DNA of 64,000 nucleotides from Escherichia coli (lineage in GTDB: Bacteria; Pseudomonadota; Gammaproteobacteria; Enterobacterales; Enterobacteriaceae). Shown piece after piece: positions 8,265-8,978 of this stretch. The position numbers and the translations under genes were made by a program. The notes beneath the pieces are model-generated. The model worked only from the letters and a program-made list of their open reading frames with translations. It was not told where the DNA came from and ran no database searches. The stretch lies in NCBI RefSeq assembly GCF_030013205.1, contig NZ_CP122648.1. One strand, given 5' to 3'. Numbering within the stretch: the stretch's first letter is position 1; each line of letters starts with the position of its first letter.

Positions 8265-8978
8265 CTATAAGGCTCTCTTACCAGCCGCGCCCTAACAGGC
8301 GCACACGATCTGACATTTGCATCCAACTTCGTTACTTACGGCCCGTAAACGGGCTGCCCGGATAGGGAATCGATAACTGCTCTCCCATTTTATCCTCTTC
8401 AAGCTGGTGCTTTATGTAATCCTGTATCTTCGCCGTGTTCTTACCCACCGTATCGACGTAGTACCCTCTGCACCAGAACTCCCTGTTCCTGTATTTGAAT
8501 TTCAAATCACCAAACTGCTCGTAAAGCATCAGACTGCTTTTCCCTTTCAGATATCCCATAAAGCCGGATACGCTCATTTTGGGCGGGATCTCCACAAGCA
8601 TATGGATATGATCTGCACAGCATTCAGCTTCCAGAATCCGTACACTTTTCCACTCACACAGCTTTCTCAAAATACTGCCTATTGCTCTACGCTTCTCTCT
8701 GTAGAACACCTGTCTTCGGTATTTTGGCGCAAAAACTATGTGATATTTACAGTTCCATCGGGTGTGCGCTAAGCTCTTTTCGTTCCCCATTGGGACCCCC
8801 TTTTGATTTCTTGTTTGACACTTGCAGTTGCCAGACCGCAAGGTGTTTTAACAAATCAAAAGGGGTTTTAATAACTGGCTTAAAGCTGAAAGCTTTCCGG
8901 ACCCCCCAGCCTAGCTGGGGGTTTTCTGTGCACAAAAAACCACGGGGCATCGCAGCCCCGTGGTTAAAACAAATGTTC
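8265..8978 (-). mobile_element. IS200 insertion sequence (IS200/IS605 family)
   Basis: Encodes an IS200-type TnpA; left end (high coordinates) has two perfect hairpins at 8901-8922 and 8938-8966, the outer one followed by a T-run on the minus strand. Size about 0.7 kb, consistent with IS200. Ends approximate. Confidence 0.8.
8332..8793 (-). CDS. tnpA: IS200 transposase TnpA (HUH/Y1 single-strand transposase)
   Basis: Translation MGNEKSLAHTRWNCKYHIVFAPKYRR...HIHMLVEIPP...YVDTVG is near-identical to remembered Salmonella IS200 TnpA and includes the His-hydrophobic-His motif; the ORF-track start at 8841 is an upstream extension. Confidence 0.9.
   Translation of the reverse strand, partial: PMGNEKSLAHTRWNCKYHIVFAPKYRRQVFYREKRRAIGSILRKLCEWKSVRILEAECCADHIHMLVEIPPKMSVSGFMGYLKGKSSLMLYEQFGDLKFKYRNREFWCRGYYVDTVGKNTAKIQDYIKHQLEEDKMGEQLSIPYPGSPFTGRK

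Follow-up and report, generated by a model that had tools for sequence, protein, structure and literature searches.

An IS200C copy at the brnQ-proY site of Escherichia coli and its relation to intrinsic terminators

The IS200 elements of Salmonella enterica have reportedly been studied by Lam and Roth, by Beuzon and Casadesus, and by Ellis and Haniford. Their described landmarks are a terminator at nt 12-34, a stem-loop in the 5'UTR of the transposase gene at nt 69-138, the Shine-Dalgarno sequence AAGGGGGT and an ATG at nt 144 (PMC4513863). The controls published for the notoriously dormant IS200 comprise a terminator hairpin at its left end, a stem-loop in the 5'UTR that hides the Shine-Dalgarno sequence, and art200, an antisense RNA which involves Hfq (PMC4513863). 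This RNA, also known as STnc490, is 90 nt long, is antisense to the IS200 5'UTR and is also expressed by IS1541, and the Y125F mutant of the IS200 transposase TnpA is catalytically dead (PMC4513863). In IS608 and ISDra2, each hairpin has a guide tetranucleotide on its 5' side, which in IS608 pairs with the cleavage sites (PMC8266576).

The DNA analysed here is a stretch of 64,000 nt from E. coli, referred to as the window, in which an IS200-type element lies between brnQ and proY (Table 1). It is almost certainly an intact, ordinary copy of IS200C, the E. coli variant so named by RefSeq, and belongs to the IS200 group of the IS200/IS605 family. This high confidence is a joint one and covers the best explanation as a whole: the identity of the element, its insertion after the brnQ terminator, a peel-and-paste mode of transposition assumed by analogy, and near-silent expression. 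The copy resembles Salmonella IS200 in its size class, in having tnpA as its single gene, in the lack of a target duplication and in its left-end layout, where the terminator (nt 12-34), the stem-loop (nt 69-138), the Shine-Dalgarno sequence, the ATG (nt 144) and Tyr125 all find their counterparts. It differs in length, as 707 bp are quoted for Salmonella IS200 compared to 711 bp here, and in its left end, whose first 8 nt read GTGCACAG in the window copy and GTCTATGG in the Salmonella copy.

Table 1. Coordinates of the element and its neighbours in the window
Feature	Position	Strand	Description
IS200C element, complete	8223..8933	minus	711 bp; IS nt 1 = window 8933
tnpA	8332..8790	minus	Includes stop codon; 152-aa Y1 HUH transposase; same CDS in RefSeq
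Left-end hairpin, CCCCCAGC-TAG-GCTGGGGG	8903..8921	minus	IS nt 13-31; fold and terminator scan; within STnc490 match
tnpA 5'UTR stem-loop	8797..8865	minus	Predicted to sequester Shine-Dalgarno AAGGGGGT at 8795-8802
Rfam RF01405 (STnc490) match	8800..8923	minus	141.8 bits, gathering score 56, E = 2e-30; model 1-124, full
Antisense sRNA art200, putative position	8782..8871	plus	Placed by mapping the description in PMC4513863 onto the window copy
Right-end hairpin, CCTCCGGC-TAT-GCCGGAGG	8232..8250	minus	Fold; terminator scan; common to all other IS200C copies
brnQ intrinsic terminator (host DNA, outside the IS)	8934..8965	minus	Stem 8938-8965, T6 tract 8934-8939
brnQ	8985..10304	minus	Pfam Branch_AA_trans, 545 bits; RefSeq; upstream flank, co-oriented with tnpA
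proY	6825..8198	minus	Pfam AA_permease, 385 bits; RefSeq and K-12 annotation; downstream flank

Ends, identity and transposase of the element

The ends of the element were fixed by alignment of the window with an empty brnQ-proY site and with an IS200C copy at an unrelated prophage site. Homology to the other copy runs from 8223 to 8933, while homology to the empty site extends up to 8222 and resumes at 8934, which defines the insert as 8223-8933. Ends at 8225-8935 are equally allowed, a 2-base ambiguity that arises because the left flank and the element both end in TT. In-silico excision of 8223-8933 yields exactly the brnQ-proY spacer of K-12 MG1655, with zero bases gained or lost. The element is therefore 711 bp long and was inserted without target-site duplication, and the comparison with the uninterrupted junction bears out the statement of an earlier note, made from the sequence alone, that the site is empty in K-12. 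With GTGCAC... and ...TTTATT as its termini, the element lacks terminal inverted repeats; instead, a subterminal hairpin with an 8-bp stem and a 3-nt loop is found near each end, with a run of A residues on its 5' side.

The earlier note had recognised an IS200 copy with its tnpA between brnQ and proY, which the profile matches and the RefSeq name bear out, and had placed it at 8265-8978, with two hairpins on the brnQ side (8901-8922 and 8938-8966) as parts of the IS200 left end. Both hairpins exist, as the terminator scan returns stems at 8903-8921 and 8938-8965 which stand 16 nt apart, and the 714 bp of this interval are near the expected size. However, the second hairpin and its T6 tract are also found in K-12 and in other IS-free genomes, and other IS200C copies match over 8223-8933 only. 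The interval omits 42 bp of the right end, so that the hairpin at 8232-8250 would fall outside the element, and includes 45 bp of host DNA instead. The two hairpins had been read as a terminator plus a stem-loop sequestering the ribosome-binding site; the first half of this reading stands, with 8903-8921 as the IS200 terminator hairpin, while 8938-8965 is the native terminator of brnQ and the published stem-loop (nt 69-138) and Shine-Dalgarno sequence map to 8797-8865. The earlier anatomy is thus refuted by the empty-site comparison and retains a very small residual probability. The corrected coordinates keep the terminator of brnQ from being annotated as part of IS200.

Over its full length, the element is 98.6-100% identical to IS200C copies annotated by RefSeq. 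Its insertion at the brnQ-proY site is already known, as RefSeq annotates it there in public genomes; in strain K_EC180, an identical protein is named "IS200C family transposase" (WP_000526135.1) at the same site. Identity to the IS200 of Salmonella enterica subsp. houtenae is 91.8% at the DNA level, so that nucleotide identity to IS200 is anything but poor, and 143 of 152 residues (94%) in TnpA, with nine amino-acid differences, which makes "near-identical to Salmonella", as the earlier note had put it, a fair description. A search of the window for a second IS200 copy found none besides 8223-8933.

TnpA scores 130.7 bits against Pfam Y1_Tnp (PF01797, cut-off 23) and 147.7 bits against the NCBIfam IS200/IS605 transposase equivalog transpos_IS200 (NF033573, cut-off 55). 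The HUH motif (H61-I62-H63) and Tyr125, as read from the translation, are both intact. An ORF of 169 aa (8332-8841) with a TTG start at 8841, taken from a mechanical list, was rejected as an over-extension, since RefSeq and the published layout both point to the ATG at 8790. The element also holds short overlapping ORFs; the family scan covered tnpA, for which alone a match was obtained. An IS605-type organisation with tnpA and tnpB is ruled out, as tnpA takes up 459 of the 711 bp and no space is left for a tnpB-sized gene.

The Y1 fold is shared with the REP-associated tyrosine transposases (RAYT/TnpA-REP), and TnpA does give a weak match of 32.2 bits to the RAYT model NF047646. If the ORF were such a domesticated, single-copy and REP-flanked gene, the score should not lie far under the cut-off of 80 while that against the IS200 model is high; the element is also multi-copy, at up to 35 places per genome and at many loci, and the flanking hairpins belong to it and travel with it. 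Score and copy number refute a RAYT identity, the probability of which is practically nil.

Hairpins of the element and of its host site

The left-end hairpin is a perfect 8-bp stem with a guide-like AAAA on its 5' side at 8922-8925. By its position, which matches nt 12-34 of the Salmonella element, it is the published bidirectional terminator (PMC4513863), and it is presumed to be the TnpA binding hairpin as well. At window position 8902 (plus strand), the window copy and its 100% matches have C and the other four copies compared have A, a change which cuts the left-end stem from 10 to 8 bp. Going by the published nt 69-138 and Shine-Dalgarno sequence (PMC4513863), the genuine stem-loop that sequesters the ribosome-binding site is the one at 8797-8865, in agreement with the STnc490 structure. 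The 80-nt stretch 8791-8870 folds with -32.1 kcal/mol (z = -5.7; none of 200 shuffles reached this stability), and the ATG of tnpA lies at IS nt 144 as in published IS200. As the sequence elements for all published IS200 controls are present in the window copy, expression of tnpA would be almost off.

The match to STnc490, the RNA family of the IS200 left end, spans both the left-end hairpin and the 5'UTR stem-loop. It is the sense strand of tnpA that fits the family model, left-end terminator hairpin included; model and characterised art200 sRNA therefore apparently lie on opposite strands. A different arrangement is seen in an IS200-group copy of Vibrio plantisponsor, in which the tnpA start follows almost directly after the left-end hairpin; this copy is without the 5'UTR stem-loop and hence without the art200 region that represses translation in IS200.

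The right-end hairpin has GAAAAA on its 5' side, and the 9 nt from it to the end of the IS (8223-8231) read ATATTTATT. The fold of this hairpin is stable on either strand (z = -3.9 for minus, -4.3 for plus) and terminator-like on both. A match of Rfam AgvB to 8211-8256 (21.3 bits, gathering score 56, E = 0.35) was discarded as a chance match driven by the right-end stem.

The third hairpin belongs to the host. The brnQ terminator has an 11-bp stem and a 6-nt loop, lies 20 nt past the brnQ stop codon and is abutted at its last T by the left end of the IS. The insertion leaves the terminator itself intact, and both K-12 and the empty site of strain MINF_7C have it in unchanged form. The 51-nt stretch 8934-8984 folds with -23.4 kcal/mol (z = -4.9), and the hairpin is also returned by the terminator scan. 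On the other side of the element, the proY ATG at 8198 lies 24 nt past the right end of the IS; the mechanical ORF list starts proY at a TTG at 8201, while K-12 and RefSeq have the ATG at 8198. Further out, malZ and phoR lie beyond proY and brnQ. As a result of the insertion, 711 bp and three terminator-like hairpins now stand between brnQ and the ribosome-binding site of proY. Going by this arrangement, proY could be further isolated from upstream transcription, and any read-through that reached it in the ancestral state is likely reduced. A simple scan for an outward promoter from the element found none.

Intrinsic terminators as insertion sites of IS200-group elements

By analogy with IS608 and ISDra2, IS200C may be expected to move by a single-strand "peel and paste" process. 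TnpA would bind both top-strand hairpins and excise the element as a single-stranded circle, which would then be inserted 3' of a short target that the A-rich guide beside the left hairpin recognises. At the brnQ-proY site, this target would be the T-tract of the brnQ terminator, with insertion after the last T and without duplication; the top strand of IS200C is co-oriented with brnQ.

The position directly behind a terminator recurs at other loci. At all 11 of the independent E. coli IS200C sites compared, i.e. the window and ten other loci (after fadR, pqqU, lom, a head-decoration gene, pheP, cysH, htpX and others), the DNA directly 5' of GTGCACAG is a GC-rich host hairpin, different at each site, whose T-rich tail ends in TT. 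The orientation of IS200C at these sites is always that of the T-tract strand, and a co-oriented annotated gene ends 35-65 nt upstream in 9 of the 11, the window included. The Salmonella IS200 copy, which comes from a phage-collection contig, shows the same hairpin and T-tract arrangement. The comparison was extended to relatives with TnpA proteins 66-93% identical at 80 listed loci, in each of which the left-end hairpin was located. They come from Vibrio, Edwardsiella, Erwinia, Sutterella, many Clostridia and others, and none of the relative loci listed is from E. coli, Salmonella or Yersinia.

Among these loci, 71 sites had enough flank to be scored. At 65 of them (92%), four or more of the last 6 nt are T and the upstream fold has -8 kcal/mol or lower, and the same fold and T-count criterion is satisfied at 1.5% of 3,687 control positions in those loci. 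A strict rule demanding a perfect terminator stem detects 44 of 71 sites against 30 of 2,289 controls; this rule under-counts, the hairpins it misses having mostly one mismatch or a long loop, and fold energy with T-count was used instead. All 71 upstream sequences differ; therefore, the hairpin is host DNA and not a part of the element.

The T-tract of the flank is complementary to the AAAA guide, which fits a choice of target by the element, with selection after insertion as a live rival. On balance, we lean towards the view that IS200-group transposases, from Enterobacteria to Clostridia, use intrinsic terminators as a structure-specific landing pad, consisting of a GC-rich hairpin and about 6 nt ending in TT, a target that the A-rich guide would recognise in single-stranded form. 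The brnQ terminator and others like it would then be recurrent sites, and shared positions could be homoplasic. If this is confirmed by experiment, terminator-precise insertion would explain the harmless spread of a nearly silent IS and would call for caution against the use of IS200 positions as clonal markers. The IS200/IS605 family prefers the lagging-strand template. The plus strand of the window has a GC skew of -0.035 and is thus C-rich, so that the top strand of the IS coincides, at this single site, with the G-rich strand and hence with the lagging-strand template.

A statistical enrichment of terminators upstream of IS copies has been reported, with 40.21% of 20,314 copies having a terminator outside the element, and was read as limiting transposase expression (10.1101/2025.07.22.666184). 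In a literature search for a nucleotide-level terminator rule, a guide/target reading or a recurrence of sites, this enrichment was all that was found; the search left the older papers on IS200 and IS1541 and the 2015 family review outside its scope, so that an earlier description is possible.

The rival is that insertion takes place at any T- or AT-rich site and that copies next to terminators merely survive, as nothing is disrupted there and they are shielded from read-through. The reading given in the preprint (10.1101/2025.07.22.666184) is in line with this, all sites examined are fixed natural insertions already past selection, and the original IS200 isolate was inserted inside hisD (PMC4513863). 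However, a junction fixed to the nucleotide is not what selection alone would produce, and in the strict scan the stem ends 4-6 nt before the predicted IS start in 32 of the 44 detected terminators (range 2-12). Nor would it account for the flank ending in TT at 58 of the 71 sites or for an orientation that is always that of the T-tract strand, and AT-rich intergenic DNA on the promoter side would be equally harmless yet is unused. Survival as the sole explanation is for these reasons considered unlikely, and targeting of the terminator by the transposase remains the reading that we prefer.

Distribution in E. coli and comparison with known systems

The insertion between brnQ and proY, with both junctions covered, is present in 207 of 5,426 complete E. 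coli genomes. A near-full copy (80% of the element or more) occurs in 2,063 of the 5,426 (38%), which makes "sporadic in E. coli", as the earlier note put it, roughly fair. Matches of any extent occur in 3,095 genomes at 10,707 places, with up to 35 per genome and at many loci. Among the matches listed, the genomes identical to the window over 1,001 bp are porcine (O139:H1 strains, a pig ETEC series and K_EC180), and O102:H6 and numerous human isolates are among those that match at 99.8%. IS200C places number 17-33 in the majority of the listed carriers (5-12 in a few), compared to a median of 1 in genomes with any match; such numbers represent an expansion of an element usually called dormant. 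The brnQ-proY insertion thus flags a set of IS200C-rich lineages. Remnants of IS200 are found on plasmids: O157:H7 virulence plasmids of the pO157 type (e.g. NZ_CP018240.1, 15563-15703) carry a conserved, unannotated 141-bp right-end remnant that corresponds to IS nt 571-711 at 92% identity, and on other large plasmids a truncated left part (nt 1-337) is left.

The value of the insertion as a strain marker, which the earlier note had proposed, was assessed by comparing 4 kb around the site (window 6600-10600) with three other carrier strains. Strain 118UI differs from the window by 0.28% in the IS and by 1.82% in the flanks (p = 0.001), and the reverse is seen in strain CFSAN018748, with 0.70% in the IS and 0.03% in the flanks (p = 0.0009). 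The right junction also exists in two alleles, with the IS followed by TATTGTG in 118UI and CFSAN018748, which have one extra T, and by ATTGTG in the window. Judged from these sequences, the history of the element is decoupled from that of its flanks at this site, which suggests that the site has been used repeatedly. Independent insertions, gene conversion among IS copies or recombination would each explain the decoupling, which a single clean ancestral insertion does not easily do.

An insertion that arose once, was inherited in all 207 genomes and so forms a clean clade marker would agree with the collinearity of all 207 matches over both junctions in one piece, with the identity of 99.4-100% among the matches listed, and with a position and orientation that are equal in the four genomes compared. 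Against it stand the decoupled divergence of IS and flanks in 118UI and CFSAN018748, the two junction alleles and a site-specific target which makes independent hits plausible; gene conversion between IS copies or regional recombination could also produce such data. A single origin is for us a possibility of some weight, if the lesser one, and the site may have been hit repeatedly. The insertion therefore marks a group of lineages and is unfit as a clonal marker when taken alone; with 207 carriers from several host sources and serotypes, decoupled divergence and two junction alleles, little is left of its proposed use as a strain marker.

Among the relatives of the window copy, IS1541 of Yersinia pestis, Y. 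pseudotuberculosis and Y. enterocolitica also belongs to the IS200 group, and its plasmid copies align over the full length. Their DNA identity to the window copy is only about 87%, hence IS1541 is a different named element.

IS608 of Helicobacter pylori and ISDra2 of Deinococcus radiodurans share with IS200C the Y1 HUH transposase and the subterminal hairpins, and like it they insert 3' of a short target, which is not duplicated. As with the guide of IS608, a tetranucleotide, AAAA, stands before both hairpins of IS200C, and target and right end both finish with TT. In contrast to these two elements, IS200C has perfect palindromes as hairpins, has no tnpB and is known here from its sequence alone. 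Its target is apparently a T-tract next to a host hairpin, compared to a bare TTAC or TTGAT in the case of IS608 and ISDra2.

The RAYT/TnpA-REP systems (REPtrons) resemble the element in their related Y1 HUH fold and in the architecture of a gene flanked by hairpins (PMC3333891). Unlike the multi-copy and mobile element in the window, whose transposase falls short of the RAYT model, they are immobile, occur as a single copy and have REP/BIME sequences on either side.

Bacterial class C group II introns insert just after the stem-loops of intrinsic terminators and recognise a DNA hairpin together with a short adjacent sequence. They do so by retrohoming of an RNP, a mechanism unrelated to that of IS200C, and the parallel between the two lies in the choice of target.
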